A stretch of DNA of 64,000 bases from Candidatus Micrarchaeota archaeon (GTDB lineage: Archaea > Micrarchaeota > Micrarchaeia > Anstonellales > Bilamarchaeaceae), in contig JBDRCX010000006.1 of the NCBI GenBank assembly GCA_043821365.1, forward strand, positions 64,001 to 128,000. Reading direction: 5' to 3'. Under the pieces are notes generated by a model. The model had not been told where the DNA came from. It did no database searches and saw nothing but the letters and a program-made list of their open reading frames with translations. Made by a program: the position numbers and the translations under genes. Of this stretch, positions 8,465 through 30,388 are shown piece by piece (position 1 is the stretch's first letter; each line of letters begins with the position of its first letter).

Positions 8465-8565
8465 ACGGCGTTCCGTTCAAGATAGTCAAAAAATTCCTAT
8501 TTTTTGGCATGTACTTGAACGGCGTTCCGTTCAAGATAGTCAAAAAATTCCTATTTTTTGGCATG
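8433..8565. repeat. 54-bp tandem repeat (2 full copies + 25-bp partial), two hairpins per unit
   Basis: Units start at 8433, 8487 and 8541; contain CAAAAAAT/ATTTTTTG and CTTGAACGG/CCGTTCAAG; span the stops of two convergent genes. Confidence 0.95.
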
Positions 8566-10102: not shown

Positions 10103-10866
10103 TTTTTTGCAATTATCCAAAGTGTATCAAAATATGCCCTAAAACTTTTTACTGCTTCTTCACTTTCAATCAGAAACCCTTTTGGCTCATTAGTAAAAAG
10201 TGCGATAAATGCTTTATTTTTATAGAAAACAATTTCCATATTCGTAATAAAATATTGCGGAAGAAAACGAATCTTAGATTTTTTCTGAGTAGTTGCCACC
10301 ATCTTTCCTTTGATATCAAAATTAGCAAGCATGTTCACTTTGATACCCTTTACTACCCTTCTCAGATGATGTTTATAGAAAAAATTTCTCCACATCGAGG
10401 TTATTTCATCTTTTGTTTCCTCGCCATAATAGGCTCCAATCACAAAATATTCATCATCCTTTTCCAACTCATCAACAAGATTCCTAAAGAAACTTGACAC
10501 CCCCTTAAAGCCTTCATAAAGAGTTGCGTTGGTTTTCTGCTCTGCTGCTTTTTTTTGCATTTCTAAATCAGGAAGCAGTTTCATCAGAAGTTCCCGATTT
10601 TGTTCCATACGCAAACGATTTTCATCAACATAATCCATGATTCGTTTAGGCTCCATTGCAGAGAAATGTTTTATTTTACCCTTGAGTACATGACCAACAA
10701 GACCTTTTTTTTCAAGTCGTCCCAGTATTTTGTAAACCTTGGATGATGAAACAGATGCAAGGGACGCGAGCTCTCCTGTTTTTGAACTGCCAAGTTTGAG
10801 AAGTGCAAGATAGACTTTTACCTCTCCTTTGCTCAATCCAATTTCTTCCAATAACTTCAAATCCAT
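10099..10866 (-). CDS. TrmB-family transcriptional regulator
   Basis: IGLSKGEVKVYLALLKLG...SKVYKILGRLEKKGLV; ends FDTLW. Confidence 0.88.
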   Translation of the reverse strand: MDLKLLEEIGLSKGEVKVYLALLKLGSSKTGELASLASVSSSKVYKILGRLEKKGLVGHVLKGKIKHFSAMEPKRIMDYVDENRLRMEQNRELLMKLLPDLEMQKKAAEQKTNATLYEGFKGVSSFFRNLVDELEKDDEYFVIGAYYGEETKDEITSMWRNFFYKHHLRRVVKGIKVNMLANFDIKGKMVATTQKKSKIRFLPQYFITNMEIVFYKNKAFIALFTNEPKGFLIESEEAVKSFRAYFDTLWIIAKN

Positions 10867-10901
10867 GAATATTATTGATATTTACAATTTATTAATTTTA
10901 G

Positions 10902-10936
10902 CAACTACGACCCCTCCAGGGGAAGATAGAATTAAA
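10902..10936 (+). promoter_or_regulatory. Conserved promoter element (CAACTACGA-CCCC-N4-GGGG, then purine tract and TTAAA)
   Basis: 28/35 identity, ungapped, to 15077-15111. Confidence 0.7.
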
Positions 10937-14222: not shown

Positions 14223-14940
14223 ACCAAAAGAATTTTCTATAACCATCTGCCAATTGCCTACTCTTCACTACGAATTGGATTGGGTTGTCACCCAACTTCC
14301 CAACTTCAACCCCAGTAAAACTAACCACATAATCTCCAAAAATATCGATTGCAGTTGGACTTGAATATTTTTTTGGTAGGAACTTATATGGTTTCCCAAC
14401 AAATTTTAGTATCTCTGGTTTATTTTCCTTAACCTCATGATCAAATAAATGCATGAATTTTATACCGCGTTTTTTTCTTTCACTATCAAACTTTGGAAGG
14501 AAATATTGCAATCTAGGATCAAGCCAAAATGCTTTTGCACCTATGAAATAGACTGTTTCTTCTTGCTCAAGTATGTCGTTGAGGTAGTTTTTGAATCCTT
14601 CCATACCTCTATAAAAATAAGCTTCTTCATTTTCTCTAACTTTCCGATATTCTTTCTGAAGCGAAGGAAGGATAGCACCCAATTCATTTTGTCTTTCTAC
14701 AAGTATGTCTGCAAGCCTGTTTGGGTCCCTTGGGATATAATGCTTTTTTCCGGATACTACCAACTCTGATATCAGGCCTTTATCGAGTAATTTTGCGATA
14801 GAATCGTAAATGTTTCTTCTATGAACACCAGAACGTACTGCTATCTTTTCTATTGGTGCCTGGCCCATTCTGATTAATGCTTCGTAAACCTTAACCTCAT
14901 TGATTGTAAGGCCTATTTTTGCAAGTGTATCCTCGTACAT
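14203..14940 (-). CDS. TrmB-family transcriptional regulator
   Basis: IGLTINEVKVYEALIRMG...SGVHRRNIYDSIAKLLDKGLI. Confidence 0.88.
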   Translation of the reverse strand: MYEDTLAKIGLTINEVKVYEALIRMGQAPIEKIAVRSGVHRRNIYDSIAKLLDKGLISELVVSGKKHYIPRDPNRLADILVERQNELGAILPSLQKEYRKVRENEEAYFYRGMEGFKNYLNDILEQEETVYFIGAKAFWLDPRLQYFLPKFDSERKKRGIKFMHLFDHEVKENKPEILKFVGKPYKFLPKKYSSPTAIDIFGDYVVSFTGVEVGKLGDNPIQFVVKSRQLADGYRKFFWFMWDML

Positions 14941-14965: not shown

Positions 14966-15076
14966 ACATTATTTAAATATGCCCAGAGCGTAATAGTTTC
15001 AGGAAGTTTGAAAAGGGAAAATCAAACAAATTAGGTGGGGAGGATTATGATTACACATATTAGATTTAGCGTAAGC

Positions 15077-15111
15077 CAACTACGACCCCCAGGGGGGAAA
15101 ATAAACTTAAA
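15077..15111 (+). promoter_or_regulatory. Second copy of the CAACTACGA-CCCC-N4-GGGG promoter element
   Basis: 28/35 identity to 10902-10936; same context (divergent TrmB and fused AB gene). Confidence 0.7.
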
Positions 15112-15155: not shown

Positions 15156-16748
15156 ATGGATAATCTGACTACTAACGAGCTTGAGAAGAAATGGAATAGC
15201 TCTTGCAAGCTAATCTTCAATCAAGAAATCGGAGATATGAACAGTTATGAACACTGGCTTACTGAACTTGTTGAACCTATTAATTATCACAAATCAAGCC
15301 TTTCTGGAAAAGACGTCATATCTGCACCAAACGGGTACTCTAAAGAATCAAAATGGCTTGCTTTCGATGAAGTTGATTTTAACAAGAAGTTCGAACCATT
15401 GAATATCAATGAAATTAAAGATATTGATTCATTAGTTCAAGCAATTTCAGAAAGATGGTACTACTCTGGAAACATATTTTTTGGGAATTCAGCATATATT
15501 GAAAAAAGCTCTAACATAAACGACAGTTTTTACATTTTCAAGAGTGCAAGATTCGGGAATTCAAAATATCTTGCCCATTGCACAATAGGAAGACAAAACC
15601 AGGAATGTTTTGGTTGTAATGTAATCAGTGAATCAAAAAACTGTATTAAGTGTTATAGGTCTTTCCGTAATTCACGTTCATTTGAGCTTTGGATGAGCCA
15701 GAATTGCTCTGGATGTTACTACTCATTTGGATTGAATGGTTGTATTGATTGTATATTTTGCTTTAATGTTGAGAGCAGAAGACAATCCATAGGAAATCTA
15801 ACGCTTGAACGTGATAAGTACATTAGCATAAAGAGTAAGTTACTAGAAGAAATAGCAGAAAAACTGCAAAAAGATCGTAGACTCATTTCCTTATTAGAGA
15901 TAATTGACAAAGTTCCGCATAAAGGCCTTAGATTTAGTAATAAAGATGGTATAAACGAACGAAATAATATAAATAAAAACAAAATTGAAAATGCATTTTC
16001 ACAAACAACCAGCACATTATTTAGTAAAAAACTTGAAGGCATTGATGATTATTCAGATTATTTAAACAGACATATAAGAATAACAAAAAAATACTCATCA
16101 GCATTTAGTGGAGATGATCTTTTCATACCAGATTATGCAAATTATTCCAGATTACCTAAAGAAAGACTGCTTAGTTCAGGTGAGGCACACACTCATAGTA
16201 AGACGGTCCAGATAAAACCAAACGACCTAGAAAACCTAAACTTAGACAATGTGCATGAAAAAATAGGTAGGATGTGTTTTTTCAATGCTGAGATGTTTGA
16301 AGGCACGAATTTGAATATGATTGAATGTGCAGTATCTGTTGATTCAGCAGATTGTTATCGGAGTTCAGTAACAGAATACTCGAAACACTGCGGGTATTCA
16401 TTCTGGCCAAGAAGTTCCCAGTATCTGTTTGGTTGTGATTCGCCTTTTGATTCAAGTTTTTGTATTAACTGTTATTCATGCACTTCACTTATACGATGTT
16501 TTGAAGTAGACTGTAGCGGCTACTGTTCAGATCTTTATTTTGGGCATAATTGCGAAAACGTTAGAGATAGCATGTTTTGTTTTAATGTCAAAAATCTCAG
16601 AAATGCAATTGGGAATGTACCACTACAATCTGATTCTTACAAAAAAATCAAAGTAATGCTTCAGAACCAGATTCATGATGAATTACAATCAAAAAAATTC
16701 TTAGAATGGGATATTTACTCCCTGAATAGAGGTGGCAGACATGGCTAA
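15156..16748 (+). CDS. Cys/Ser-rich hexapeptide-repeat protein, fused A-B
   Basis: FEPLNINEIKDIDS; FWPRSSQYLFG; HNCENVRDSMFCFNVKNLRNAIGN. Confidence 0.9.
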   Translation: MDNLTTNELEKKWNSSCKLIFNQEIGDMNSYEHWLTELVEPINYHKSSLSGKDVISAPNGYSKESKWLAFDEVDFNKKFEPLNINEIKDIDSLVQAISERWYYSGNIFFGNSAYIEKSSNINDSFYIFKSARFGNSKYLAHCTIGRQNQECFGCNVISESKNCIKCYRSFRNSRSFELWMSQNCSGCYYSFGLNGCIDCIFCFNVESRRQSIGNLTLERDKYISIKSKLLEEIAEKLQKDRRLISLLEIIDKVPHKGLRFSNKDGINERNNINKNKIENAFSQTTSTLFSKKLEGIDDYSDYLNRHIRITKKYSSAFSGDDLFIPDYANYSRLPKERLLSSGEAHTHSKTVQIKPNDLENLNLDNVHEKIGRMCFFNAEMFEGTNLNMIECAVSVDSADCYRSSVTEYSKHCGYSFWPRSSQYLFGCDSPFDSSFCINCYSCTSLIRCFEVDCSGYCSDLYFGHNCENVRDSMFCFNVKNLRNAIGNVPLQSDSYKKIKVMLQNQIHDELQSKKFLEWDIYSLNRGGRHG

Positions 16749-16974
16749 ACAGTTATCGTCTTCATGCATACGACAACAGGATAAATATGCTGAAAGAGCA
16801 AGTTTACAAATGGGAAAGAAAACTTGGGAAACAAATAAACAGCCAGTTTTGGACCTTATCTTTTCGATGAGTTTTTGGGTACCTTTTTCCAAAAAAGGTA
16901 CAAAACCGCTCTACAGCGGCACTAGAGATATATATTTCAAAAAAGAGATAGTTGGTGTGGGAATATGGAAGTAA
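16741..16974 (+). CDS. Possible small coupled ORF or gene remnant
   Basis: GAGGTG 6 nt before ATG 16741, overlapping the upstream stop; the 3' half overlaps a promoter motif; no recognisable domain. Confidence 0.25.
   Translation: MAKQLSSSCIRQQDKYAERASLQMGKKTWETNKQPVLDLIFSMSFWVPFSKKGTKPLYSGTRDIYFKKEIVGVGIWK
16879..16901. terminator. 10-bp perfect hairpin GTACCTTTTT-CCA-AAAAAGGTAC (possible terminator)
   Basis: Perfect inverted repeat between the AB gene and the ATPase promoter; function inferred. Confidence 0.35.
16901..16919 (+). promoter_or_regulatory. Motif CAAAACCGCTCTACAGCGG upstream of the ATPase TATA-like box
   Basis: 17/19 identity to the reverse complement of 28486-28504; contains CCGCT-N4-AGCGG. 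Confidence 0.7.
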
Positions 16975-19109
16975 GAGAAATACACCTCTACTCGGAAAAA
17001 GTAGAGGATAATGATGTTAAGAATCTGTTCAACCAGGTTACCAAATCTAGGTTTCCACTATTTGGACTGATAGATCTGTCTAATATTTTCTCTCCTAATG
17101 CCCTTACGCTAGTAGTTAAAAGGAATATAAATACAGTAAAATTCTATGCAAAGGAAAAAGATTGCCTCCAGAATATCTCTCCACTAATTTTTCCATACAG
17201 AATGTGTGATCCAAGCTTGCTGAAGCTTTCTGGGGGCTCTTATTTCCCTTTTCCAAGAATGTACATCATCAATGGTGCAACCCATGATCTGCTTGACTTT
17301 ATACTAAAAGAAAAGATAGAACAAATGACATTAAACGTAACAAAAGTCATGGGACAGTTCATTGCAAACGGAACAGTAGTATGTGAAAATGGACAAAAAG
17401 GGATGTTCACTGTGCTAGCACCTCAAAAATTCCTTACGATTAATCTTGAGAAAAACCCATCAATTTACATTGAACTCCTTGAGCCATTGCCAAAACAAAT
17501 ATATGTAAGCTCAAAATTCCCTGTTTTTGAAGAAACCGGAATTACTATGGGTGTGGATAACTACGACCCATTACAACACACAATAATAGCAGGAACTTCT
17601 GGTTCAGGAAAAAGTAAAGGGCTTTTTGTGTTGTTAAAAGCATTAGAAGCAAAGTACAAAGACGGTGCACGGGTGGTTGTGGTTGACCCACATGGGGAAT
17701 TTGCAAGACTGTTCCCTCATGCCAAAGTTATAGATTTCATAAAAAATTATGTTGAGCCACTAGACGTAGGAAAAGATAAATCCCCAATGCTGACCCAGTT
17801 GGTCTCACAATTAATTACCTCTTCGATAGGGCAAGAAAACAAATATTCAGAACGTGTATTGTTTTATACTGTTCACCTTCTCTCATCAATCAATAAACTT
17901 GACCTTAACAATATAAGCCTACTTTTAACAGACTCATCAGTAAAGGCAGAATATGTCAGCATGTGTGATAATGATGAGGTAAAAAGATTCTTTGATGAAG
18001 AATACAATGACATACACATCCACCATTTCAACAATGCTATTCTTCCAATTTTGAACTTTATTGGGGAGTACCAATTGTATTTAGGAAAGGAGAAAAAACG
18101 AGAGGGGCTTTTGGAATCCATCCAACAGAACAGAATAACTGTAGTTGCATTTGACCCCAAATTCTTCGGAAGAAGAATGATTAGTTTCCTTGCTGGAGCA
18201 GTTATCAATCAGATGTATATTCTAGCAATTACAGGAAAACTCCAAGAAAAACCAACTGTTTTGGTTGTTGATGAATTCCCAAGAGTGGAAACAAGAGTAA
18301 CCAAGGACATTCTTTCAGAAACAAGAAAATTCAATTTATTCGCATACCTATCATGCCAGTATTTGGGCCAGCTGAGCAAAGAAGTTCTTGATTCAATTGT
18401 ATCAAATGCAAGAAACATAATTGCATTTAAGATAAATAAACAAGATGCTGCAATGCTCAGCTCAATCATGGAAATAAAGGTCGAGGAATACTTCAAAAAG
18501 AGCAGAGCAACAACTGAACTTGAAGAGTCTAAAAAAGAGATGTTTGTACGTTTACACCAGAGAGAGTGCATTGTCAGATTATTTGATGGTGTCAAATATC
18601 TTTTACCAATGAAACTAAAGATTGTTGATGCAAAAAAGTGGGGGCTGAGAGAAGGGACAGTACCTTACGTTGAAAGAGATCCACCACCAGAGGCACCAGG
18701 AGTGCCAAGATCAAAACCAATGACAAATGCATTCCAAGGACAAGAACCTCAAGAAAGCGAAAAACCACAAATGACACCAGCAGGACCATTACCAAGAATG
18801 TCTGTTTCGCAACAGCAGGGAATACCAGGAGCACCACCAATTGACAATGACACTGGACTGTATTGTGTAGCTGAAGAAGGAGAAACACCACCAGAAGAAG
18901 AAAAAGAAGAGAAACCAGCATTACCAGAACCAATGACTGAGAGTCCATGGTTGCAAGAAACACCAGATGCGATATACCAATTGGAAAAAGCAAAACTTAA
19001 TGGTGTTATAAAAGATATGCCAAAACAACCTAAAGAAACAGAAGATACAGATAAAAAACCAGAAGAGAAAAAACACAAAAAATCAAAAAAACCTAAGAAG
19101 AAAGAGTGA
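16965..19109 (+). CDS. HerA/FtsK/TrwB-superfamily P-loop ATPase (DUF87-like) with low-complexity C-tail
   Basis: HTIIAGTSGSGKS, VVVVDPHGEF, LVVDEFP, SETRKFNL...QYLGQL; Pro/Glu/Lys-rich tail. Confidence 0.85.
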   Translation: MEVREIHLYSEKVEDNDVKNLFNQVTKSRFPLFGLIDLSNIFSPNALTLVVKRNINTVKFYAKEKDCLQNISPLIFPYRMCDPSLLKLSGGSYFPFPRMYIINGATHDLLDFILKEKIEQMTLNVTKVMGQFIANGTVVCENGQKGMFTVLAPQKFLTINLEKNPSIYIELLEPLPKQIYVSSKFPVFEETGITMGVDNYDPLQHTIIAGTSGSGKSKGLFVLLKALEAKYKDGARVVVVDPHGEFARLFPHAKVIDFIKNYVEPLDVGKDKSPMLTQLVSQLITSSIGQENKYSERVLFYTVHLLSSINKLDLNNISLLLTDSSVKAEYVSMCDNDEVKRFFDEEYNDIHIHHFNNAILPILNFIGEYQLYLGKEKKREGLLESIQQNRITVVAFDPKFFGRRMISFLAGAVINQMYILAITGKLQEKPTVLVVDEFPRVETRVTKDILSETRKFNLFAYLSCQYLGQLSKEVLDSIVSNARNIIAFKINKQDAAMLSSIMEIKVEEYFKKSRATTELEESKKEMFVRLHQRECIVRLFDGVKYLLPMKLKIVDAKKWGLREGTVPYVERDPPPEAPGVPRSKPMTNAFQGQEPQESEKPQMTPAGPLPRMSVSQQQGIPGAPPIDNDTGLYCVAEEGETPPEEEKEEKPALPEPMTESPWLQETPDAIYQLEKAKLNGVIKDMPKQPKETEDTDKKPEEKKHKKSKKPKKKE

Positions 19110-20667
19110 ACACGCTCCACTTCAAACTTTTATTATTTTCTAGTTTTTGGTTTATTTCATCTAAAACCATTTTTTTAATTTTAAGATACCTCTCTTTACC
19201 AACCTCAACATTGCCTATAGCGTACCGTTTATTCTTTAGATTAAAACAGAACAGACAATTCGACAAACTTTCGCAGTTATGGCAGAATAATGAATCTGAG
19301 CAATCCCTGCAATTATCCATTTCAAAACATCTTGATAATTTTTGAGAATGATAACAATTGATACAGAAATTAGAATCGAAAATAGTATCAAATCCAAAGC
19401 AATTATTGGAATCCTTGGGCCACATACCACAAGCACAGTATTTTGACCTCACTACGGCAGATGCCTTGTAACAATGTGCTGCTCCAACAGTGACCGTAGA
19501 CTCGATAAAATTCTCAACTTTGCCCTCTCTAATATCAACAGTAAAATAGGATATTTTTCCAATATTTTCATGTGCATTTTCCAAACTTAATTTTTCGACT
19601 TCGTCTAGGTTAAATTTCACAGACTCGCCAATCTGTCTAGCCTCACCCATTGTAACAACAATATCCTCTGGGAGGGCCTCAAGTGCAATAACATAGGGTA
19701 GCATAAGTAGTCTTTTTCCACTGATGGCAGATTTTCTTTCCTCTATTTTATGTGCATGCCTATAGAGCCAATCATGATACTCGTCGATATCCTTTAGTCT
19801 TTTTCCAAAAATTACTGCCGATGTATTTGTAAATGCATTTTCAACTATTTCCTTATTTTCAGAATATTTTTCTTCATCAAGTGGAGGTAAATTTGGCTTT
19901 TGTAATTTGCCTTTTTTAACAATATCAAGCAAAGAAGGCAATGATTTGTTCTTTTTTAGTTCATCAACCATTTGTTCACAGAGGGATTTTTTTATTGAGA
20001 AATATTTTTCTTTGTCGATTTCCAGATTCCCTATGCAGTATCTTTTATTTTTTAAGTGGAAAGAAAAAAGACAGTTGGAACAACCAGTTAGGTTTGATAC
20101 ATAATAACAATCTGAACAGTTCTGAGCAGACCAAATTTCAAACGAACGTTTAACAGAAAATGTCTGAGTACAACGAATACAGAATTCTGTTTCTCCTGGG
20201 CCATGGACTCCAAAACAATTGTTGCTATCCCTACCAACAGTGCAGTAAGCAAGATATTTTGAATTTATAAATTGGGCTGAATCAGTTACATAAAAACAAT
20301 CAGTAAGATTACAACTTCTTTCTACATGGCTTGAGTTACCAAGAACAGTATTACCACAGTAATAAGCCCTATCCGAAACCGCTTGTATAAGAGAATCAAT
20401 ATCTTTAATTTCGTTAATATCCAATGGTTCGAACTTCTTGTTAAAATCAACTTCATCGAAACTTATCCACTTGGAATTTGGATAATACTCCTTTATTGAA
20501 AATGCAACTTCTTTCCCAGATAGGGTTGATTTTCTGATTAGGTTTGAATCGATAAGACCAGAAAGCCATTTTGAATATTCTTCAAGCTCACCAATCTCTT
20601 CGCCAAATAATAGTTTTGTAGTTTTTTTCCATGATTGATTCAGTATATTATACGTTTCTGATGACAT
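19093..20667 (-). CDS. Cys/Ser-rich hexapeptide-repeat protein, fused A-B
   Basis: FEPLDINEIKDIDS; CFNLKNKRYAIGNVEVGKERY; last gene of the minus-strand operon. Confidence 0.9.
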   Translation of the reverse strand: MSSETYNILNQSWKKTTKLLFGEEIGELEEYSKWLSGLIDSNLIRKSTLSGKEVAFSIKEYYPNSKWISFDEVDFNKKFEPLDINEIKDIDSLIQAVSDRAYYCGNTVLGNSSHVERSCNLTDCFYVTDSAQFINSKYLAYCTVGRDSNNCFGVHGPGETEFCIRCTQTFSVKRSFEIWSAQNCSDCYYVSNLTGCSNCLFSFHLKNKRYCIGNLEIDKEKYFSIKKSLCEQMVDELKKNKSLPSLLDIVKKGKLQKPNLPPLDEEKYSENKEIVENAFTNTSAVIFGKRLKDIDEYHDWLYRHAHKIEERKSAISGKRLLMLPYVIALEALPEDIVVTMGEARQIGESVKFNLDEVEKLSLENAHENIGKISYFTVDIREGKVENFIESTVTVGAAHCYKASAVVRSKYCACGMWPKDSNNCFGFDTIFDSNFCINCYHSQKLSRCFEMDNCRDCSDSLFCHNCESLSNCLFCFNLKNKRYAIGNVEVGKERYLKIKKMVLDEINQKLENNKSLKWSVFTLSS

Positions 20668-20668
20668 G

Positions 20669-21433
20669 CTATTTTTTACCCCCCAAATTGTAGATGTTCA
20701 GAACAAGCTTTTTTTCATTTTCTATTTTTTCTGCAATTTCACTCACAATCATTTTCTTTATTCTAAGGTACTCCTCCTTTCCAACTTCCACATTCATTAT
20801 AGCATATCTAAGCGATTTTGCATTAAAACAGAACATACAATTGTTCAAATTCTCGCAGTTATGGCAAAAGTAGCAATCAGTACAGTTGCTACAATCGCTT
20901 AATTCAAAGCACCTTGCTAGTTTTACGGAATTATAACATTTGATAGAAAAATTTGAAGCAAATAAAAAGTGGGAACCAAAACAATATTCTGATTCTCTTG
21001 GCCAAAAACAGTAAGCATCACATTTTGAATAGATATACCAGACTCCATCTAAACAATGTTGGGCATGCATACAGGTGGATGTTTTTTGAAGGTCTTGATT
21101 CTGGCCAAGCATGACATCAGAAGTTACATAGTTTATTTCTTGTAATTTTTCTGAGGCATTAGATAGGGTTAATGTCTTTGCACCATGTTCTGAGATTTGT
21201 TTTTTACCAAGTTCAAGTGATTCTTCTAAAGTAACAAGATTCTTTTTTATGGAATTGAAGAAGAGGATATCTGGCACGTAGACAATCTTGTCACTTACCT
21301 GGGATTTGGTATGGAGTGCTTTGTTTACATTTTCTAAAAGCCAATTTCGATAGCTTTCCAAATTAGTCAATTTTCTACCGAAAATAATTGAAGTGGTTTC
21401 CTGAAAGGCTTTTTCAATTTCCAAATTACCCAT
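20669..21433 (-). CDS. Cys/Ser-rich hexapeptide-repeat protein, single B unit
   Basis: FWPRESEYCFG; FCHNCENLNNCMFCFN; ATG 21433 follows GGTGAT. Confidence 0.88.
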   Translation of the reverse strand: MGNLEIEKAFQETTSIIFGRKLTNLESYRNWLLENVNKALHTKSQVSDKIVYVPDILFFNSIKKNLVTLEESLELGKKQISEHGAKTLTLSNASEKLQEINYVTSDVMLGQNQDLQKTSTCMHAQHCLDGVWYIYSKCDAYCFWPRESEYCFGSHFLFASNFSIKCYNSVKLARCFELSDCSNCTDCYFCHNCENLNNCMFCFNAKSLRYAIMNVEVGKEEYLRIKKMIVSEIAEKIENEKKLVLNIYNLGGKK

Positions 21434-22196
21434 GCACATCACCGTTAATTATATCTATCAATGATGGAAGTTTCTTTCTTGCTTTCAGAATCTCACGCAT
21501 TTCACCAATGAGTTTTTCCTTTAATTTATGGTATTCTTCAGGACTAAATTGGTGGTTTCCGATCATATAACTTTTATTTCTTTGATTGAAAGAAAACATA
21601 CAATTGGTGCAATTTTCCAGACTTCCTGTAAAATAACAATCTGATGCAACATAGTTTCTGATGGTTTCCAAGCATCGGACATTTTTGTAGGTTTCAAAGG
21701 TTTTGATATTAAACTTACTCCCTTCACCAATTGCATTACCACCAAAGATGTACTCTGCAAATCTTAGAACTGATGAGTATGCGACAAATTTACAATCATA
21801 AACATCTTGGGTTTTATAAATAAATGAGGAATTGATGCACCTATTAGAGACCTGAACTTCACGGGAGTTACCAAGAACAACATTACCAATATAATATGCT
21901 TTTTCATTAACAGCTTCAATAATGGAATCAATATCTTTGATTTTGTTTATATCATATTTTTGCTTGCCAATTGTGTTCATATATTGATCAATTTCATCAA
22001 GGCTTAGGAATTTGGCCCCTGGAGCAACTTTTTCAGATGATACAATAACTTCTTTCCCAGATAAGGCGGATTTTTTCATACCAAATGGATCAACATATCT
22101 TAGAAGCCATGTCTCGTATTCACCAAGGTTGCCAAGTTCTTCTCCAAATAGCACCTTGGATGTTTTTTTCCATGCAACATTAATATCAGAATTCAT
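21426..22196 (-). CDS. Cys/Ser-rich hexapeptide-repeat protein, single A unit
   Basis: WKKTSKVLFGEELG; DINKIKDIDS; YYIGNVVLGNS. Confidence 0.88.
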   Translation of the reverse strand: MNSDINVAWKKTSKVLFGEELGNLGEYETWLLRYVDPFGMKKSALSGKEVIVSSEKVAPGAKFLSLDEIDQYMNTIGKQKYDINKIKDIDSIIEAVNEKAYYIGNVVLGNSREVQVSNRCINSSFIYKTQDVYDCKFVAYSSVLRFAEYIFGGNAIGEGSKFNIKTFETYKNVRCLETIRNYVASDCYFTGSLENCTNCMFSFNQRNKSYMIGNHQFSPEEYHKLKEKLIGEMREILKARKKLPSLIDIINGDVHG

Positions 22197-22966
22197 TATT
22201 GCTGCCCCACATTAAAAATATTCAAACTAAGTCGTTTGTCTTTTTCTAGTTTTTTTGTAAGTTCTTCAAGAACTTTTTGTTTTATTTCGAGGTATTTTTC
22301 TTTACCGACTTCGATATTGGCAATTGCGTACCTCTTTGCTTTTACATTAAAACAAAACATGCAGTTATTCAGATTTTCACAATTATGACAGAACAGTGAA
22401 TCAGTACAATTGCTACAGTCACTCATTTCAAAGCAACGATTAAGGTTTTCAGAATTGTAACACTTGATACAGAATTGAGAGGAAAAAGTGTAGAAAGTAC
22501 CAATATTGTAATCTGATTGCCTTGGCCAAAAACAATAGAAACAATATTTGGAACGGACAAGAGCAACACACTTGTAACTATAATGAGATGAATAGTAAAA
22601 ATCACAATCAATAAGATTGCTGCACTCACCATAGCGAGTATTTGGAGTGGTGGTGGATAATTTTGCCAAAAGATTTTTAGCAGTGGAAAAGGTTAGTTGG
22701 TTTAGTTCATCATCAGAAAGATGGTTTTTTCCGTGGGTAAAATAGGCTTCTTCTATGGTAAGTATGTTGTGTTTTATGTCTCGATAAAAATCAAATGGTG
22801 GAAGGTATATTTTTTCACCACTAATAAGTGATTTGCCATATTCATTCGTTGATACATTTTCAGTTAGCCAATCTTCATAATCTTTGAAATTACAAAGTTT
22901 TTTGCCTAGAACAATCGAAGTAATGGTCTGAAAAGATTTTTCAAGATCAGATTCTAGTTTATCCAT
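22196..22966 (-). CDS. Cys/Ser-rich hexapeptide-repeat protein, single B unit
   Basis: FWPRQSDYNIG; FCHNCENLNNCMFCFNVKAKRYAIAN; ATG 22966 follows GGTGAT. Confidence 0.88.
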   Translation of the reverse strand: MDKLESDLEKSFQTITSIVLGKKLCNFKDYEDWLTENVSTNEYGKSLISGEKIYLPPFDFYRDIKHNILTIEEAYFTHGKNHLSDDELNQLTFSTAKNLLAKLSTTTPNTRYGECSNLIDCDFYYSSHYSYKCVALVRSKYCFYCFWPRQSDYNIGTFYTFSSQFCIKCYNSENLNRCFEMSDCSNCTDSLFCHNCENLNNCMFCFNVKAKRYAIANIEVGKEKYLEIKQKVLEELTKKLEKDKRLSLNIFNVGQQ

Positions 22967-23747
22967 TCCAATCACCTTTCCCACTTATTATCTCTATTAT
23001 CGAGGGAAGTTTCTTCTTTCTTTTAAGTTCATCGGCAAATTCACCAACTAATTTTGATTTCAGTTCAGCATATTTATCTTTAGTCAGCTGTATATTGCCA
23101 ATTAGATAGTTCTTATTTCTTTGATTAAATGAAAAGATACAGTTGGTACAGTCCTCAAGACTTGCAGAATAGAAACTATCAGATGCAACATTACAATGAT
23201 AGGTTTCCAAGCACCGGAGTTGTTTGTGCGGATCAAGGACTTTTATACAGAACTGAATCTCTCCACCAAAACAACAACCAAATGAGTACTCTGGACTGCG
23301 AATAGAAGTTGTATATGCAACGTATTTTCCATCATAAACATCCTGGCAACCCATGGCATAAACAGTATTAACGCAACGGTGTGAGTTTATCACATTGGTT
23401 GAATGTCCCAAAACAATATTTCCAGCATAACAGACTTTTTCTTTAGCTGCATGAATAATTGAATCAACATCTTTGATATCATTGATATTGAAGGGCATTG
23501 AAAACATTCTTTTTTCGTATTCATGCATTTCCTCATGACCTATCACTGGTGCTTGTTTTGGCACCCTATTGGATGAGATTGTAACATCATTGCCACTTAG
23601 AATGGATTTTCTTTTTACGATTGGGTCAGTATATGTTTTTAGATAATTTGTAAATTCTGATAGTTCACCAACTTCTTGACCAAGCAGAACCTTACAAGTG
23701 GATTTCCAAGATTTATTTAATTGATTAATAATCATAGCATCAGACAT
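22959..23747 (-). CDS. Cys/Ser-rich hexapeptide-repeat protein, single A unit
   Basis: LNKSWKSTCKVLLGQEVG; FNINDIKDVDS; ATG 23747 follows GGTGAT. Confidence 0.88.
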   Translation of the reverse strand: MSDAMIINQLNKSWKSTCKVLLGQEVGELSEFTNYLKTYTDPIVKRKSILSGNDVTISSNRVPKQAPVIGHEEMHEYEKRMFSMPFNINDIKDVDSIIHAAKEKVCYAGNIVLGHSTNVINSHRCVNTVYAMGCQDVYDGKYVAYTTSIRSPEYSFGCCFGGEIQFCIKVLDPHKQLRCLETYHCNVASDSFYSASLEDCTNCIFSFNQRNKNYLIGNIQLTKDKYAELKSKLVGEFADELKRKKKLPSIIEIISGKGDWNG

Positions 23748-24537
23748 TAGGATCACCTTTTCCTATTGAATAAATGTCAAAATTTACGGTTTTAGTTTTT
23801 GATAATTGATCGTTAATATGAGTAAGTAGAATTTTTTTCACACGCATATATTCTTCACGGCCAACTTCTATGTTTCCTATCGCATAGCGCTTATTTTTCA
23901 CATTAAAGCAAAACATGCAGTCGTTCAGACCTTCTGAATTATGACAGAATAGAATATCGCTTGAATGATAGCAACCATCAACTTCGAATGACCGGATAAC
24001 TTTAACTGAATTGTAAGCATGAATGCAGAATTGGGAATAGGGAGTATTATGGCAACCAAACATATTCTGAGAATACATTGGATAGTTGGAATATGCCACG
24101 TTTTTTATGCCGCCATAAAGGTCGTCACCGTAGTATAGATACATGCCATCCCCTGCACCACTGCATTTTTCAATGTTTGAAAATGTCTTCCATCTGAAAT
24201 TACCGATGGCATAGGCAACTGGTTTTACAATCCTGTTTACCATGTCTTTTATGTCAGAATCCTTTATCTCATCATAAATGAATTTAGTATGATTTACTTT
24301 GTCCATTTCTTCCATGGAAATAGATCTTTTGCTTGAAATTTTTCTCCCCATAAAATTTAGAGTTGGGAAGTTCCAAACCTCAACATCACTAACTGCAGAT
24401 TTAGCTGGATGGGGGAGTGGAACATATTTACCAAGCCAGGGACCATAATCATCAATACCAACTAGTGGTTTGCCAAGTAAAAGGTTAGATGTACTAGAAA
24501 ATTCCTTTTCTAATTCAGGCCAGACCATATTAGGCAC
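23740..24537 (-). CDS. Cys/Ser-rich hexapeptide-repeat protein, single B unit (divergent)
   Basis: FCHNSEGLNDCMFCFNVKNKRYAIGNIEVGREEY. Confidence 0.88.
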   Translation of the reverse strand: MPNMVWPELEKEFSSTSNLLLGKPLVGIDDYGPWLGKYVPLPHPAKSAVSDVEVWNFPTLNFMGRKISSKRSISMEEMDKVNHTKFIYDEIKDSDIKDMVNRIVKPVAYAIGNFRWKTFSNIEKCSGAGDGMYLYYGDDLYGGIKNVAYSNYPMYSQNMFGCHNTPYSQFCIHAYNSVKVIRSFEVDGCYHSSDILFCHNSEGLNDCMFCFNVKNKRYAIGNIEVGREEYMRVKKILLTHINDQLSKTKTVNFDIYSIGKGDPNV

Positions 24538-25306
24538 CCTCCCCCAGAATATCCATTATGGACATTATTCTCTTTCTTTTTTTCAAATCCTCAGCCATTT
24601 CGCCTATTAATTTTGCCCTCAACGGGGCATATTGTTCTTTTGTGAGTTGTACATTGCCGACCATATTTCGTTTTGCACGTACATTGAAAGTGAAAAGGCA
24701 ATCAGATGAACCAGTAACATTATGGCAGAAATAACAATCAGAACTACTTACAGTAAGACTGCACTCAAAACAGCGTTTGAGAGAATTGTTATAGAGGCAT
24801 CTTATGAGCATGGAACTGTCACCGCTTGAAGTTGATGCAAAACAATATTCGTTATTCCGTAGCATGTAGCAGTATGCAACATATTTTCCATTGACAATCA
24901 TTGATGAATCAAGAACATAATTGCTGTCAGTTATGTTATCTGAATTTTTCACAAATTTCGAGTTTCCGAGAACTTTGTTGCCACTGTAAATGAATTTTTC
25001 TTCTACTGCATCAAAGAGAGAATCAACATCCTTGATTCGGTTTACATCAATTGGCTTGGACAGAATAGATGCACTTTGGATTTCTTTATTGTAATCAAAA
25101 AATCTGGCTTTTGGAGGATAATGTTTTGACGTGACAAATAGGTCTTTGCCAGATATTATTGATTTTACTGATTTGCCAACCAATGGTTCTTTTAGATAGT
25201 CAGAATAATCAGACATCACGCTAAGTGGTTCCCCAAATAGGACTTTGGTAGTTTGCTTCCAAGCATTATCCATAATTGTCTCTATGCCATTAGTTTCGAA
25301 TGCCAT
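24530..25306 (-). CDS. Cys/Ser-rich hexapeptide-repeat protein, single A unit
   Basis: AWKQTTKVLFGEPL; IDVNRIKDVDS; YSGNKVLGNSKFV; start set at MAFET (25306). Confidence 0.86.
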   Translation of the reverse strand: MAFETNGIETIMDNAWKQTTKVLFGEPLSVMSDYSDYLKEPLVGKSVKSIISGKDLFVTSKHYPPKARFFDYNKEIQSASILSKPIDVNRIKDVDSLFDAVEEKFIYSGNKVLGNSKFVKNSDNITDSNYVLDSSMIVNGKYVAYCYMLRNNEYCFASTSSGDSSMLIRCLYNNSLKRCFECSLTVSSSDCYFCHNVTGSSDCLFTFNVRAKRNMVGNVQLTKEQYAPLRAKLIGEMAEDLKKRKRIMSIMDILGEGA

Positions 25307-26886
25307 AATTTTGACCCTCTTCCACCTAAATTGAAAATGCTCCACGGAATGCTCTTTCTTTTTTCAAGATCATCAACGATCTGAGCAAGAACAGTGGATT
25401 TAATTGATTTGAACTTATCCTGTGGCAACACTCCATTGCCAATTGCAAACCGTAAATTTTTTGCATTAAAACAAAACATACTATCTCGTACATTTTCGCA
25501 ATTGTGTGCAAAGTAAATATCTGAACAGTTATTTGATGCATCCACCTCAAATGCTCTTGAGAGATTCATGGAATAATATGTGTGAATACAGAAATTCGAA
25601 GTAAATGAAAGACCACAACCATAGACATATTTTGAATGCCTAGGCCAATAGGAAAAGGCAACATTTTCATTGAATGATGCAATTGGACAGTAATAACAAT
25701 TTACAGAAGTATTGCAAAGTGGAACCATGATTAAATTTTTTGTTTCTCCCAATTGACCTTCTGGATTGAAATAAGCAATTTTACCGATTGATTTTTTCAA
25801 GCTAGACAATGACTCTATATCTTCTCCATCAAGTTGCAGATTTTCTCCTAATGCCCAATTTTCCCATTGGGTAACTAATCGATCACGAGAATAAAGGTGG
25901 AATGGTGAAGTTTCACCAAGATAAACTGGTTTTCCGGTTGCCGAAGATTTTTCTTCACTTATATATGGCACATGACTTAGCAACCAGCCCTTATAATTAT
26001 CAATTTGTGAAAGGGGGTTGTTGAATAAAAGAGATGTTGTTTTTTGAAAACCTAATTCAATAGGTCCTTTATTTTTTTGTTCTTTATCATCAGAAGGATT
26101 GAAATTTTTTGGAACAGGAAGTGCATCACAACTTTTTGATGCAATTTCCATCAATGATGGAAGTTTTTTCTTTATCTCAAGCTCAATCTTAAGATCTTCA
26201 ATAAGTTTTTCTTTTAAAGAAAGATATTTTTCTTTTGTCAATTGGATATTTCCTATGACATTTCTTTTGTTTTTTAGATTAAATGAAAAAAGAACATCCT
26301 GTGAACCCTGGACACATGAACTGAAATAACAATCACTTGAATCATAACATTTCCATGCTTCAAGACATCGTGATTGTTTGTGGGTTTCAAATGCCCTTAC
26401 TGTTGAGGTTGTAAAAGCATCACTAACAACACCAAAAAGATATTTGCTACCCCGGCAATATGAACAATATGCCATATATTCTGAATCATAGATAAAATTG
26501 GAATTGTAAACATAGAACGAGTTTTGTACATCTGAACTTTTTTCAACATGTTTGGAATTTCCAAGAACAACATTACCGCAATAGTAAACTCTTTCTTCCA
26601 AAGCTTCAATGATAGAATCGATATCTTTGATCTCATTTATATTCAATGGTTCGAATTTTTGGCCATAATCAATTTCATCAAGTGAAATAAATTTGGCATT
26701 GTCTTCATAATCAGATACGGCACAGTACACTTCTTTATTTGATTTTGCTGATTTTTTATTTTTTAGAGGAACACAACCTTCTGAAAGCCATTCGGAATAG
26801 TTATCAATATCACCTACCTCTGCACCTAAGAGCACTTTCATAGTAGATTTCCAAGACTTGTTTATTGATTCACGAACCTCGGTCAT
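25282..26886 (-). CDS. Cys/Ser-rich hexapeptide-repeat protein, fused A-B
   Basis: FEPLNINEIKDIDS; YWPRHSKY; HNCENVRDSMFCFN. Confidence 0.9.
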   Translation of the reverse strand: MTEVRESINKSWKSTMKVLLGAEVGDIDNYSEWLSEGCVPLKNKKSAKSNKEVYCAVSDYEDNAKFISLDEIDYGQKFEPLNINEIKDIDSIIEALEERVYYCGNVVLGNSKHVEKSSDVQNSFYVYNSNFIYDSEYMAYCSYCRGSKYLFGVVSDAFTTSTVRAFETHKQSRCLEAWKCYDSSDCYFSSCVQGSQDVLFSFNLKNKRNVIGNIQLTKEKYLSLKEKLIEDLKIELEIKKKLPSLMEIASKSCDALPVPKNFNPSDDKEQKNKGPIELGFQKTTSLLFNNPLSQIDNYKGWLLSHVPYISEEKSSATGKPVYLGETSPFHLYSRDRLVTQWENWALGENLQLDGEDIESLSSLKKSIGKIAYFNPEGQLGETKNLIMVPLCNTSVNCYYCPIASFNENVAFSYWPRHSKYVYGCGLSFTSNFCIHTYYSMNLSRAFEVDASNNCSDIYFAHNCENVRDSMFCFNAKNLRFAIGNGVLPQDKFKSIKSTVLAQIVDDLEKRKSIPWSIFNLGGRGSKLWHSKLMA

Positions 26887-28448
26887 TTCATCCCTCCGAT
26901 GGTAAAAATATTAAATCGAAGATTTTTCTTGTCAAGTATTTCTGAACTTAGTTGCTCAGTGATAGATTCTTTTATTTTGGAATAATCTGCTTGTGGGATG
27001 GTCGTATTCCCAATTGCATGCCTCTTGCCTTTTACATTAAAACAGAACATACTGTCACTTAGACCCTCAGAATTATGACAGAAAAATGAATCAGAACATT
27101 TGTTCGACGTGTCTACTTCTAGACAACGGCTAAGATATAGTGAATTATGACAATTGATACAGAACTCGGAATTCATATTACGGTAGCCACCAAAAATATA
27201 CTTTGAACTAAATGCTGATGATATGACACCAAGATTTTCACTTTGGACTATGTCAAAGCCTTTGTAGACATTGTTCGTATAGTAAACTAATGGTGACTGA
27301 ATGATATTACTATTTACACCATCCAAAATTTCAACTGAAAAATAGGCAATTTCAGCGAGATTTGAAATGATTGAATCTACTGAATTGATTTTTGATGGAT
27401 CCAGAGTGAGTTTACTAAGTTCCAACCCTTCCCCTAAAGTAACTAGAAGTTCTTTTGGAAAAAGAGAAAGGGCATATAGATCTGGATGAAGAGGGAGATA
27501 GGTTGTTCTTCCAAACATTGTTTTTATTGAATCCATCTTTATTTTTTCAGATGAAAGCCAAGACTCATAATTTTTTATTGTTCCAGGATCTTTTTTCAGA
27601 ATAATTTTGAATGTTGATGTAAAACTCCTCTCAATTACTTGCATATCGCCTGTATCTGGTTTTTTTGGTGTGGAAAGAACTGGTCGTTTTGGTATTTTTC
27701 CCTTTCTTACTAGATCAAATAATGAAGGGTATTTTTTATTCTTTTTCAGATCATGAACAACTTCGGATATAAGCTTCTTTTTCAATTCTAGATATTTGTC
27801 CCTAGTAAGTTGAAGATTTCCAATTCTATACTTTTTATTTCTTTGGAAAAATGAAAACAAAAGCTCACTAGAATTGACGCATTGATTAGAAAAATAGATA
27901 TCAGTACAATCACCGAGAATTTGACTTTCAAAAATACGCTTGCAATGAAACCCACCATAGAACTTTATTGTAAATTCTGTTTTTCCGAACCACCCTGAAC
28001 CAAAAATATGTTTACTGTTAAGACGAACTAAAGATGAATGGAAAACGTTAGTAGATTGGGAGATATTCAGAGAATTGGCAACATAATTTGAATCCATTAC
28101 AAGATCTGAAGATTCAACGAACTTGGAATTACCTAGAATTCTGTTGCCTGTGTATGTCCATTCTTCAGAAACTGCCCTTGTAATTGAATCAATGTCTTTG
28201 ATATCATTTATTGACAGTGGTTTTGATTCTTTTATTTCATCTGCAGAAATAACTTTTGCCAATTTAGAATAATCTGATGCAAGTACCACATCTTTACCAG
28301 AAATTGCGGATTTTGAAACTTGAGGTTTTGGACAGTACTCCTTCAACCACTCTTCATAATCCCTAAGCTCACCTAGCTCTTCTCCAAGAAGAATCTTGCA
28401 TGTTGATGACCAGGATTTGTTAAGTGATGAATAAAGCTCGGAATTCAT
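26883..28448 (-). CDS. Cys/Ser-rich hexapeptide-repeat protein, fused A-B; first gene of the 9-gene operon
   Basis: LNKSWSSTCKILLGEELG; PLSINDIKDIDS; FCHNSEGLSDSMFCFNVKGKRHAIGN. Confidence 0.9.
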   Translation of the reverse strand: MNSELYSSLNKSWSSTCKILLGEELGELRDYEEWLKEYCPKPQVSKSAISGKDVVLASDYSKLAKVISADEIKESKPLSINDIKDIDSITRAVSEEWTYTGNRILGNSKFVESSDLVMDSNYVANSLNISQSTNVFHSSLVRLNSKHIFGSGWFGKTEFTIKFYGGFHCKRIFESQILGDCTDIYFSNQCVNSSELLFSFFQRNKKYRIGNLQLTRDKYLELKKKLISEVVHDLKKNKKYPSLFDLVRKGKIPKRPVLSTPKKPDTGDMQVIERSFTSTFKIILKKDPGTIKNYESWLSSEKIKMDSIKTMFGRTTYLPLHPDLYALSLFPKELLVTLGEGLELSKLTLDPSKINSVDSIISNLAEIAYFSVEILDGVNSNIIQSPLVYYTNNVYKGFDIVQSENLGVISSAFSSKYIFGGYRNMNSEFCINCHNSLYLSRCLEVDTSNKCSDSFFCHNSEGLSDSMFCFNVKGKRHAIGNTTIPQADYSKIKESITEQLSSEILDKKNLRFNIFTIGGMK

Positions 28449-28485
28449 GTTAGTATGGACGCTTTAATCATATAATAGAGTAACA

Positions 28486-28504
28486 CCGTTGCAGAGCGGT
28501 TTTG
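28486..28504 (-). promoter_or_regulatory. Motif CAAAACCGCTCTGCAACGG upstream of the operon TATA-like box
   Basis: 17/19 identity to 16901-16919; similar ~9-nt spacing to an AT-rich box (TATTATAT). Confidence 0.7.
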
Positions 28505-28535
28505 GCATCTCTCAATGAAATAATGCGTTGTTTAA

Positions 28536-29252
28536 TCAGCGCATGATCCGTAAGATGTCATTCAAAACTGGAAGTAACTTCTTTTCTGCTTTTCTCAAAA
28601 GTTCTGCACAAGTAGACGGACTTATGTCTAGTTTCTTTGACAGCTCTTCTATATTGATTTTTTTAGGTTCTTCATAATACCCATATCTACAGGCAAGATC
28701 AAAAACTTCCATCTGTCTATCTGTTAAAATTTCACTGGCAAATTTTAGTTTACTAAACCCAGACGTTCTAAAATTATCAAGAGAAACTGATTGTGAAGGT
28801 TCAAGATATCTTTTTGATTTGATTTTAAGATCATAACCATGGTCTTTTACAAGTTCCATAAAATGTTTTAAACTTTTGAAATTCGGTGCAAGCATGGTAA
28901 CATGATCAACACCATCCTCTGTCCATGTTGGCTCTATCCACATGGTTTTAGTTTTTGCAAGTGCAGGAGCAGTGGCAAGATCCTTGCTTTGTTTAACAGA
29001 AATTTGTGACTTGTGATTACCTATTATGATTATTGCGACTTCTTTGACTTTTGATTGTTTTTTGAAGAGTTCGACAGTAGACCTGAGGTTGGATGTATCA
29101 ACTTCAAAAAGATTAGTAATTGTTTTTTCATCCTGGCCTATTGTTGCAAGCCATTTTATTTTGACATCTTTTAATTTGTCAGTAACTGCTATTGAAGTAC
29201 AATCATGGATTTGTTCAAGCTCCACAATAAGAGGTTGAATTTTATCAGCCAT
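28536..29252 (-). CDS. HTH_10 (bacterio-opsin activator-type HTH) regulator
   Basis: LTDRQMEVFDLACRYGYYEEPKKINIEELSKKLDIS...LLRKAEKK. Confidence 0.87.
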   Translation of the reverse strand: MADKIQPLIVELEQIHDCTSIAVTDKLKDVKIKWLATIGQDEKTITNLFEVDTSNLRSTVELFKKQSKVKEVAIIIIGNHKSQISVKQSKDLATAPALAKTKTMWIEPTWTEDGVDHVTMLAPNFKSLKHFMELVKDHGYDLKIKSKRYLEPSQSVSLDNFRTSGFSKLKFASEILTDRQMEVFDLACRYGYYEEPKKINIEELSKKLDISPSTCAELLRKAEKKLLPVLNDILRIMR

Positions 29253-29281
29253 ATAACAGATTCACCTTGATGATTTTAATA

Positions 29282-30388
29282 TTATGCAGCTTTTAGATTT
29301 TTTACAGGAAGAACTGTTTGTCCTTGGCCTCTGTGACTTGGGATTCTCTTCTTATCAAGTGCAAATGCCTCCCTTGCTCTTTTGCAGACAGTGTCACATA
29401 TGGAACCCTGTTCAGTTTCCTTATTTGACCTAAGCCAGGCTTCTGCTTCTCTTACATAATGTGTAATTAAAAGAACACGATTTGCTACGATTTCTTCAAA
29501 TGAATGGCCTCTAAGATCACCTTCATTCATATCAAGATTTGTAAATTTAGATGTGAAACATGCAGTAATATGGCCTTCTGCAGTTACACGCATATTATTT
29601 GAGGCACCATCGTGCACATCAGATAAAAAACGTTCGACTCTTTCCCTTGTTGTTAAACCATCACTTAGGATTAATGGTAAAGTGCATGCCCTTCCAGTTC
29701 TGCGCAATGGTTTTGCTGTTAAATCAACATCTAGAAATGGATTTGGAAGAGATCTTGGACTGCCATCAGGATTTGTCCTTCTTGCATTTTCAAAAATTGC
29801 AAAGTTTTCTCTTACCCATCTAAAAAAATCAGTCTCAAGAATTTCTCTTTCTGTTAAAACAGGGAATAGAGAACGGATCTGAACAGGCATCTCAACAGAT
29901 TCAGGAAAACAAAGGACTTTTAGGCCTCTTGCAGCTAACGGTGCTCTTGATATGAATAGAAGAGCATCACGAATTCTATTTTCATCTGAAAGATAACCGT
30001 ATGGATGGTATGTGACATTGAAACGAACGTGTATACCAGATTCTGCAAATTCTCGCAAAACAGTTTCAAGATGATCTTTATCCATATGGGGATTAAATCC
30101 ACCAGTTAATACTCCTATGAAATTTGCATAACGTGAGACTGAACGCAAAAAATTTGGAAGATCGCTGTGATAGGTTGGATCTCCACCTCCAAGTAGATTG
30201 ATTTTTGTTCCAAGATCAGGAACTAGACGGGACTTGGGTCTTAGTCGGAAGTGACCAGACTGAAATAAAAGATCAACATCTTCTGGAGACAGCTCCAGTC
30301 CTTTCATATTGGCACTATCCCCACAGTGCTTGCAACCATTGCCGCATTTGGATGTTGGATCTAATTGGCTGATGGTAAGATTATCCAT
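29282..30388 (-). CDS. Divergent radical SAM protein with twitch/SPASM-like C-terminal Cys
   Basis: CGNGCKHC (CX3CX2C), GGGDP, RVTAEGHITAC, CDTVC. Confidence 0.75.
   Translation of the reverse strand: MDNLTISQLDPTSKCGNGCKHCGDSANMKGLELSPEDVDLLFQSGHFRLRPKSRLVPDLGTKINLLGGGDPTYHSDLPNFLRSVSRYANFIGVLTGGFNPHMDKDHLETVLREFAESGIHVRFNVTYHPYGYLSDENRIRDALLFISRAPLAARGLKVLCFPESVEMPVQIRSLFPVLTEREILETDFFRWVRENFAIFENARRTNPDGSPRSLPNPFLDVDLTAKPLRRTGRACTLPLILSDGLTTRERVERFLSDVHDGASNNMRVTAEGHITACFTSKFTNLDMNEGDLRGHSFEEIVANRVLLITHYVREAEAWLRSNKETEQGSICDTVCKRAREAFALDKKRIPSHRGQGQTVLPVKNLKAA

Follow-up and report, generated by a model that had tools for sequence, protein, structure and literature searches.

The locus described here raises the question of whether two nearly identical short sequences, one ahead of a gene for a putative motor ATPase and the other ahead of an operon of paralogous genes that converges on it, are copies of a single operator, and if so which protein reads them and with what effect on transcription. 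Both lie in a 64,000-nt stretch of contig JBDRCX010000006.1 (assembly GCA_043821365.1, positions 64,001 to 128,000), hereafter the window, from a Candidatus Micrarchaeota archaeon known from its assembly alone (1,198,174 bp in 6 contigs, 36% G+C). An earlier inspection of the letters, made without database searches and called here the sequence-only reading, had proposed that the two sequences co-activate the ATPase gene and the operon through the product of an adjacent gene for a helix-turn-helix (HTH) protein of the Pfam family HTH_10. Regulation of the ATPase gene and the operon as one unit is supported by the rarity of the motif, by its conservation at both promoters and by the placement of the boxes that follow it, and on this comparative evidence the two very probably form one small co-regulated system. 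The complete explanation, a single regulon in which the HTH_10 protein encoded at 28536-29252 would bind the shared dyad and activate both promoters, is in our judgment evenly balanced between being right and being wrong, and most of what follows concerns the steps on which that balance depends.

The probable operator pair and its promoters

The two 19-mers lie at 16901-16919 on the plus strand and at 28504-28486 on the minus strand and are identical at 17 of 19 positions, with coordinates and identity as first reported. Each also contains the dyad that had been described, although the two copies are not equally regular: the core of the ATPase-side 19-mer (16906-16919, plus strand) has perfect 5-bp arms around a 4-nt centre, and the core of the operon-side 19-mer (28486-28499, minus strand) carries one arm mismatch. 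The TATA-like box that should follow each motif is likewise present, at a measured distance of 8 nt at both sites rather than the about 9 nt originally given. On the ATPase side it is a ATATATAT box at 16928-16935 (plus strand), the presumed TATA box of the ATPase promoter, with the ATPase start codon (ATG at 16965) 29 nt past it. On the operon side it is a TATTATAT box at 28470-28477 (minus strand), the presumed TATA box of the operon promoter, which spans positions -29 to -22 counted from the first operon gene's ATG (28448), a start codon 21 nt past the box.

Chance is excluded as the source of the pair. The window holds 2 matches to the motif against a mean of 0.03 in 100 dinucleotide shuffles, none of which held 2, and a genome-wide scan, which the sequence-only reading had named as a check, showed that the motif is not frequent: there are two sites in this genome, with no further site at 3 or fewer mismatches in the assembly, and the 9-mer core AACCGCTCT is confined to the same two sites across all contigs. 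The upstream regions of the two promoters are unrelated outside the motif, and no additional members emerged when this genome was searched for other promoters sharing the spacer and box. Another 9-mer common to the two upstream regions, CCAGTTTTG, was treated as a chance resemblance; on the operon side it falls inside the conserved C-terminal coding sequence of the regulator gene, and its spacing differs. An 80-codon open reading frame (ORF) with a GTG start at 16732-16974, which spans both the ATPase promoter and its operator, is probably not a gene; orthologues show free divergence and indels across this region, and we therefore treated the ORF as spurious.

The functional core of the motif is the 14-bp dyad CCGYT-N4-RRCGG, followed after 8 nt by an ATATATA-type TATA box. 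Beyond the closest relatives the 5' CAAAA of the 19-mer is not kept, so what is conserved is the dyad together with its fixed distance to the box. Across the 18 sites collected, dyad positions C1, C2, G3, C12, G13 and G14 are invariant. The dyad is palindromic and occupies a fixed spot directly upstream of the B recognition element (BRE) and TATA box, two of the features that characterise a site for an activator of the TFB-RF1 kind. In genomes without the paired promoters the bare 14-bp dyad, taken without a box, occurs at chance level, so only the composite pattern is diagnostic.

The reading of the dyad as an RNA or DNA hairpin was rejected, since its arms show no covariation and shuffled sequences fold as well as the operon-side copy does (z = -0.65). 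Among the collected sites, positions 4 and 11 change without regard to each other (C/G 6, C/A 6, T/G 3, T/A 3), which implies no selection for base pairing, as expected of two half-sites contacted by protein, and there was no Rfam match across 16000-30000. A separate 10-bp hairpin with a T run does lie directly upstream of the ATPase-side dyad (16879-16901, plus strand; fold -17 kcal/mol, z = -3.3) and is probably a terminator or insulator of the preceding paralog gene, distinct from the operator. Among the closest relatives (G024 and G015; G, L and C numbers are our labels for comparison genomes, loci and contigs), hairpins of differing sequence stand in the same place at both promoters, and terminators, insulators and small mobile palindromic elements are the alternatives for what they are. 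The two promoters of G015 have ~41 nt in common, with one mismatch and the hairpin included.

Conservation of the paired promoters

Orthologous loci, where the sequence-only reading had suggested that the motif be sought, do carry it at both promoters, in other genera too and where regulator identity is as low as about 37%. Of 24 genomes sampled within the genus, 10 have an ATPase orthologue, and orthologues also occur in other families of the order; we read 30-40 kb around the ATPase gene in ten genomes and fetched six stretches from other genera. Six genomes whose ATPase is 71-88% identical (G000, G024, G015, G007, G005 and G003) have the dyad, the 8-nt spacing and the ATATATA-type box at both promoters, and in all six the flanks and the 4-nt centre have diverged. 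The dyad footprint is present at both promoters in G044, G047 and G020 too, and the distance from dyad to box is 8 nt in every promoter collected. Counted by side, the ATPase-side dyad is kept in 9 genus species and in 5 genomes checked from other genera, and the operon-side dyad in 11 genus species (with a secondary paralog operon of G012 included in the count) as well as in G105, G116 and G128.

The full layout, consisting of an HTH_10 gene, a dyad, a paralog operon and a facing ATPase gene with its own dyad, was verified in G105 and G116, which belong to two other genera. In G128 both dyad-bearing promoters are present, each on a short contig of its own, and the 1.5 kb fetched upstream contains no regulator gene; G113 and G112 have the ATPase-side site. 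The dyad thus stands at both promoters in other genera though the proteins there are only 37-70% identical. Upstream of the ATPase gene of G018 (locus L006) the dyad is absent and a 13-nt unit with a GATATATA box is tandemly duplicated.

We scanned 40 genomes of the genus and 176 of the order (98 other members of the family and 77 genomes outside it among them) for the dyad plus TATAT, with the reversed pattern as control. Matches occurred in 11 of the 40 genus genomes, and the control gave 0 matches there. Exactly the expected pair was found in 8; G024 has one match and a one-base variant, G018 has one match, and the match in G011 falls in a GC-rich, probably coding stretch and is apparently due to chance, all others being located at these promoters. 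Beyond the 8 genomes with both sites, an operon-side or variant site is present in four genomes of the genus. Across the order, there were matches in 22 of the 98 other family genomes and in 2 of the 77 outside the family, the control giving 5, and outside the family the dyad-plus-TATA pattern is at chance level. Over all 176 genomes its matches fall almost exclusively at the two promoter types, and with this spacing it is family-specific.

The candidate regulator and the sign of regulation

The protein favoured as binder of the dyad is the 238-residue product of 28536-29252 (minus strand), which is preferred because its gene adjoins the operon-side dyad, because its recognition helix covaries with the operator, and because the other HTH_10 protein of the window (9446-10102) has a different helix, KRRALQ. 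Its HTH_10 domain (PF04967, E = 2.1e-19) is C-terminal, scoring 69.5 bits against a cut-off of 23.1 with residues 176-227 aligned to profile positions 1-52 of 53. The N-terminal 170 residues gave no GAF or PAS match, so that the protein does not have the sensor make-up of Bat, and matched HVO_A0563_N below threshold (15.9 bits against a cut-off of 27). In the predicted model this N-terminal domain is built of repeated beta-alpha-beta units, an alpha/beta arrangement. Searching the PDB by sequence with the regulator returned no significant match to a solved structure, and Foldseek returned low-TM matches, the best to Ta1207 (TMq 0.43). A homodimer prediction scored 0.39 against a mark of 0.42 and was used neither for nor against dimer formation.

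An HTH_10 gene lies close upstream of the operon-side dyad wherever the operon-side flank is readable; in all six genomes with 71-88% ATPase identity it is an orthologue of the window gene. Only 3 nt separate the regulator stop codon from the dyad in G007, G005 and G018, and elsewhere the gap is 3-130 nt, with ~0.8 kb inserted in G015 and 2.8 kb in G012. The HTH_10 proteins of the genus fall into groups according to their helix. In group 1, which comprises the window protein and its orthologues down to 36% identity, the helix starts with S-P/Q-S-T and the gene is found beside the CCGYT dyad; the regulators of G105 and G116, 37-39% identical overall, keep both SPSTLAEHLRKAE and the same dyad. 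In group 2 the helix reads S-E/D-A-A-A-G (EAAAG), and the gene lies directly upstream of a different composite site, CTTGY-N4-RCAAG followed after 8 nt by a TAAT box, in a promoter that drives a radical-SAM gene with a product of ~388 aa. In the genus scan the group-2 pattern has about one site per genome, and at least 10 of 17 matches come right after a group-2 gene; G000, which is without a group-2 gene, has no such site. Group-2 loci in other genomes of the genus are L044, L045, L049-L053, L055-L057 and L061. The 8-nt spacer, roughly sAYYAGsG and not A-rich, is similar in both groups and is no general promoter feature of this genome.

The core promoters were compared with those of genes in this genome that have free upstream space, in which the TATA consensus is near TTTWWAAA and its starts peak at -31 to -29 from the ATG, which is the signature of leaderless transcripts. 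The sequence-only reading had expected both AT boxes to lie at the usual distance from a transcription start. This fits the operon box, which is at the TATA position of leaderless genes; the ATPase box is farther out, at -37 to -41. The operon box starts at -31 in most orthologues, with a constant 23 nt to the ATG, and at -29 in the window and its two closest relatives, where the shorter distance of 21 nt applies. For the ATPase box the distance to the ATG grows from the 29 nt seen here to 33 nt in more distant orthologues, and a box start at -37 to -41 would imply a short leader of about 7-11 nt. The conserved boxes are non-consensus and score below the genome median on a crude TATA matrix, used with a faint genome-wide BRE signal: in the operon promoter the best-scoring box ranks at the 29th percentile, and the conserved ATPase box reaches 1.6 where the median is 4.0.

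We hypothesize that the 28536-29252 protein most likely binds the 14-bp dyad as a dimer, at a position immediately upstream of the BRE that would correspond to roughly -52 to -39 from the transcription start, and that the bound factor most likely helps transcription factor B (TFB) and the TATA-binding protein (TBP) to assemble on a weak core promoter, so that the ATPase motor and its presumed partner proteins would be switched on together. The activator sequence of the bop gene lies about 52-39 bp upstream of the start, the same position as that proposed for the dyad. What the sequences show directly is the site with its uniqueness and fixed geometry, its conservation at both promoters, its linkage to the regulator gene and the covariation of helix and operator. 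Binding by this protein as a dimer, the points at which transcription starts, whether it is raised or lowered, and what the N-terminal domain senses are all inferred. Our leaning toward activation rather than repression comes from the position of the dyad upstream of the core elements, from the precedents of TFB-RF1 and of Bat and DmsR, and from the below-median boxes.

This kind of architecture is already known in archaea, and the locus is a new example of it in an uncharacterised system from an uncultured lineage. TFB-RF1 (PF1088) of Pyrococcus furiosus and other Thermococcales recognises the palindrome TCTG-N5-CAGA, whose distance to a weak BRE downstream is conserved, and activates two promoters only, one of them beside its own gene (PMC5937170). 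The palindrome, the fixed distance to BRE/TATA, the two-promoter regulon, the target that adjoins the regulator gene and the conservation in relatives are all features that the present system has in common with it, whereas the phylum, the site sequence and the targets (an ABC transporter in that case) differ, and the likeness is one of architecture. Binding and TFB recruitment were shown experimentally for TFB-RF1, while here they are deduced from sequence. Closer in protein family are Bat and DmsR of Halobacterium, positive regulators whose C-terminal HTH belongs to the same Pfam family HTH_10; Bat exerts its effect from an upstream activator sequence situated 5' of the promoter (PMC1447603). 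Bat, however, has GAF and PAS/PAC sensor domains where the window protein has a 170-residue alpha/beta domain with no above-threshold Pfam match, and the site sequence and targets of Bat and DmsR are unrelated to those seen here. EarA also binds upstream of BRE/TATA and is needed for transcription of a dedicated operon. Ptr2 is another protein that binds upstream of BRE/TATA and is needed for a dedicated operon. Both belong to other protein families, and the EarA site is not a 5-4-5 palindrome, so the comparison with these two is a functional analogy only.

Several observations weigh against activation of both promoters by the 28536-29252 protein. The ATPase promoter of G018 is without the dyad, and in G012 both the ATPase promoter and the main operon promoter are without it; G012 nonetheless keeps an SPST-type regulator and one dyad, 2.8 kb off on the same contig, before another paralog gene. 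In G009, G042 and G046 the helix of the regulator orthologue (54-55% identity) reads EAA and its gene is not next to any dyad, and the covariation of helix and operator amounts to about two independent evolutionary events. The argument from a weak core promoter is soft, given the faint genome-wide BRE signal and the crude TATA matrix, and the sign of regulation is judged from the position of the site by a rule of thumb that has exceptions.

The sign is also where the first alternative parts from activation. The same site and the same HTH_10 factor could work as a repressor, or both ways depending on a ligand, with a footprint that extends into the BRE, blocks TFB and leaves both units silent until a signal arrives. 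With only 8 nt between dyad and box, a dimer covering ~20-24 bp would overlap the BRE position; the N-terminal alpha/beta domain of 170 residues could bind a ligand, and archaeal regulators such as TrmBL1 are described as able to repress or activate (PMC4706686). The site nevertheless precedes the core elements instead of covering or following them, the core boxes depart from the consensus, and the characterised regulators with this type of HTH, Bat and DmsR, are activators (PMC1447603). The dyad-less ATPase promoter of G012 has a consensus-like TTTAAAT box, which fits dependence on an activator in the others, as a single anecdote. We regard repression or dual action as possible, if doubtful.

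It is a good deal less probable, and in our view unlikely, that the operator is genuine and common to both promoters while the binder is some other protein, such as one of the TrmB-like proteins (14203-14940, 8551-9309 and 10099-10866), the HTH_10 protein at 9446-10102 or a regulator encoded elsewhere. The island does hold several regulator genes, adjacency is circumstantial evidence, and TrmB-like genes occur in some of the loci (G000, G015 and G112), in G112 divergently from the dyad-bearing ATPase promoter. Yet no TrmB homologue was found within 20 kb of the locus in G007, G005 or G003, or in the segments fetched from G105 and G116, all of which have an HTH_10 gene of the 28536 type. Where plus-strand paralog genes adjoin TrmB-like genes, their cassette is a different one, with a C4-N4-G4 dyad. 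The helix of 9446-10102 differs as well, and the SPST helix tracks the CCGYT dyad across genera. Least probable of all, to the point of being very hard to credit, is that the pair is non-regulatory, whether as the relic of a promoter cassette that was duplicated or converted, as a small mobile element with a hairpin, or as the terminator hairpin of an upstream gene. The ~41 nt of likeness between the G015 promoters looks like gene conversion or insertion, varying hairpins precede the site in the three closest species, and the dyad comes right after the stop codon of the regulator; in most species, however, the two promoters share dyad arms, spacing and box only, with unrelated flanks, and the dyad persists at both promoters between genera whose proteins have diverged to 37-70% identity. 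The lack of stem-like covariation in the arms, the poor folding of the operon copy and the absence of an Rfam match likewise speak against this origin.

The presumed target genes and the meaning of the proposed regulon

If the two promoters are activated together by the HTH_10 protein, the first target would be the 714-residue FtsK/HerA/VirD4-type ATPase encoded at 16965-19109 on the plus strand (Pfam DUF87, 42.3 bits against a cut-off of 23.2; TrwB_AAD_bind, 35 bits). Its NCBIfam matches, to CedD, TraD and HerA, are weak and cover the P-loop region, and against the full-length HerA equivalog model it scored 17.2 bits, far from the cut-off of 970, with the P-loop region alone aligned. The second target would be the nine-gene operon at 19093-28448 on the minus strand, delimited from ORFs and an all-against-all BLAST comparison, which encodes two-module paralogs in the form of 3 fused genes and 3 split pairs. 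The building blocks of the family are two modules of about 260 aa, one N-type and one C-type, and three further fused genes and one further split pair lie upstream on the plus strand. The first operon gene of G015 (contig C54) has an in-frame stop.

No Pfam or NCBIfam match was found for the paralog family, whose nearest ESM Atlas clusters consist of unnamed archaeal proteins, commonest in Microcaldota (Micrarchaeota). The model of a fused paralog (predicted local distance difference test score, pLDDT, 75.9) had no Foldseek match at an E of 0.001 or better, and a wide VIA search with it gave Z of at most 4.6 to left-handed beta-helices, other solenoids, ice-binding proteins and adhesin heads. 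The model is suggestive of a solenoid fold, and no more.

The sequence-only reading took the motif as its best evidence that the ATPase belongs to the system. The motif does tie the ATPase to it, and it is not the sole evidence, since convergent synteny and phyletic co-occurrence agree with it; three independent lines, namely the shared operator, the convergent layout and the phyletic co-occurrence, thus point to membership of the ATPase. The convergent layout is kept across genera and recurs without the dyad in another family, in G031. Among 41 related genomes, the paralog family is present in 14, all of which have the ATPase; 3 have the ATPase without the family (G030, G035 and G037), and of the 24 without the ATPase none has the family. 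These co-occurrence counts are descriptive and carry no statistical test, as the genomes are related to one another. In G031, ten fused paralogs stand in a row facing the ATPase gene (contig C1, loci L026 and L027) and the genome has 28 family matches in all; a CCGYT operator and an adjacent HTH_10 gene were not found at this locus.

Other elements of the island concern the paralog and radical-SAM genes. The plus-strand paralog genes that begin at 10961 and 15156 are preceded by another common cassette, a CCCC-N4-GGGG dyad before an AT-rich box (about 10900-10935 and 15075-15110), and these cassettes lie in intervals divergent from TrmB-like genes, which suggests a second, separate regulon in the same island. 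A radical-SAM gene is located just upstream of the regulator in the window (29282-30388), and in G018 (contig C18, loci L038 and L072) a radical-SAM gene stands under the CCGYT operator, with paralog genes after it. Such arrangements are hints that a radical-SAM enzyme may be functionally linked to the Cys/Ser-rich putative solenoid proteins.

A wider hypothesis would treat the HTH_10 proteins of Micrarchaeota as paralogous local activators with a recognition code in which SPST reads CCGYT and EAAAG reads CTTGY. Docking 8 nt upstream of TATA, over a common and unusual BRE-like spacer (sAYYAGsG), would then be a dedicated module for recruiting TFB, and the ATPase, the solenoid partners and the radical-SAM enzyme would together make up one inducible machine, possibly deployed at host contact. 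We consider this extension speculative and, taken as a whole, rather improbable.

Almost nothing is known of gene regulation in DPANN archaea, and our literature search for promoter or regulator studies in Micrarchaeota found nothing relevant. The ATPase and the putative solenoid gene family are among the largest uncharacterised gene sets in Micrarchaeota, and a two-promoter regulon would be a separate line of evidence for joint function of the ATPase and the paralog operon. Because the operator and its candidate regulator could be tested in vitro with the protein and 40-bp DNA fragments, the proposal can be addressed without a culture, and the two helix-operator variants form a natural pair from which the DNA reading of HTH_10 proteins may be learned. 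Through the regulon, the expression of the system could also be tracked in metatranscriptomes.

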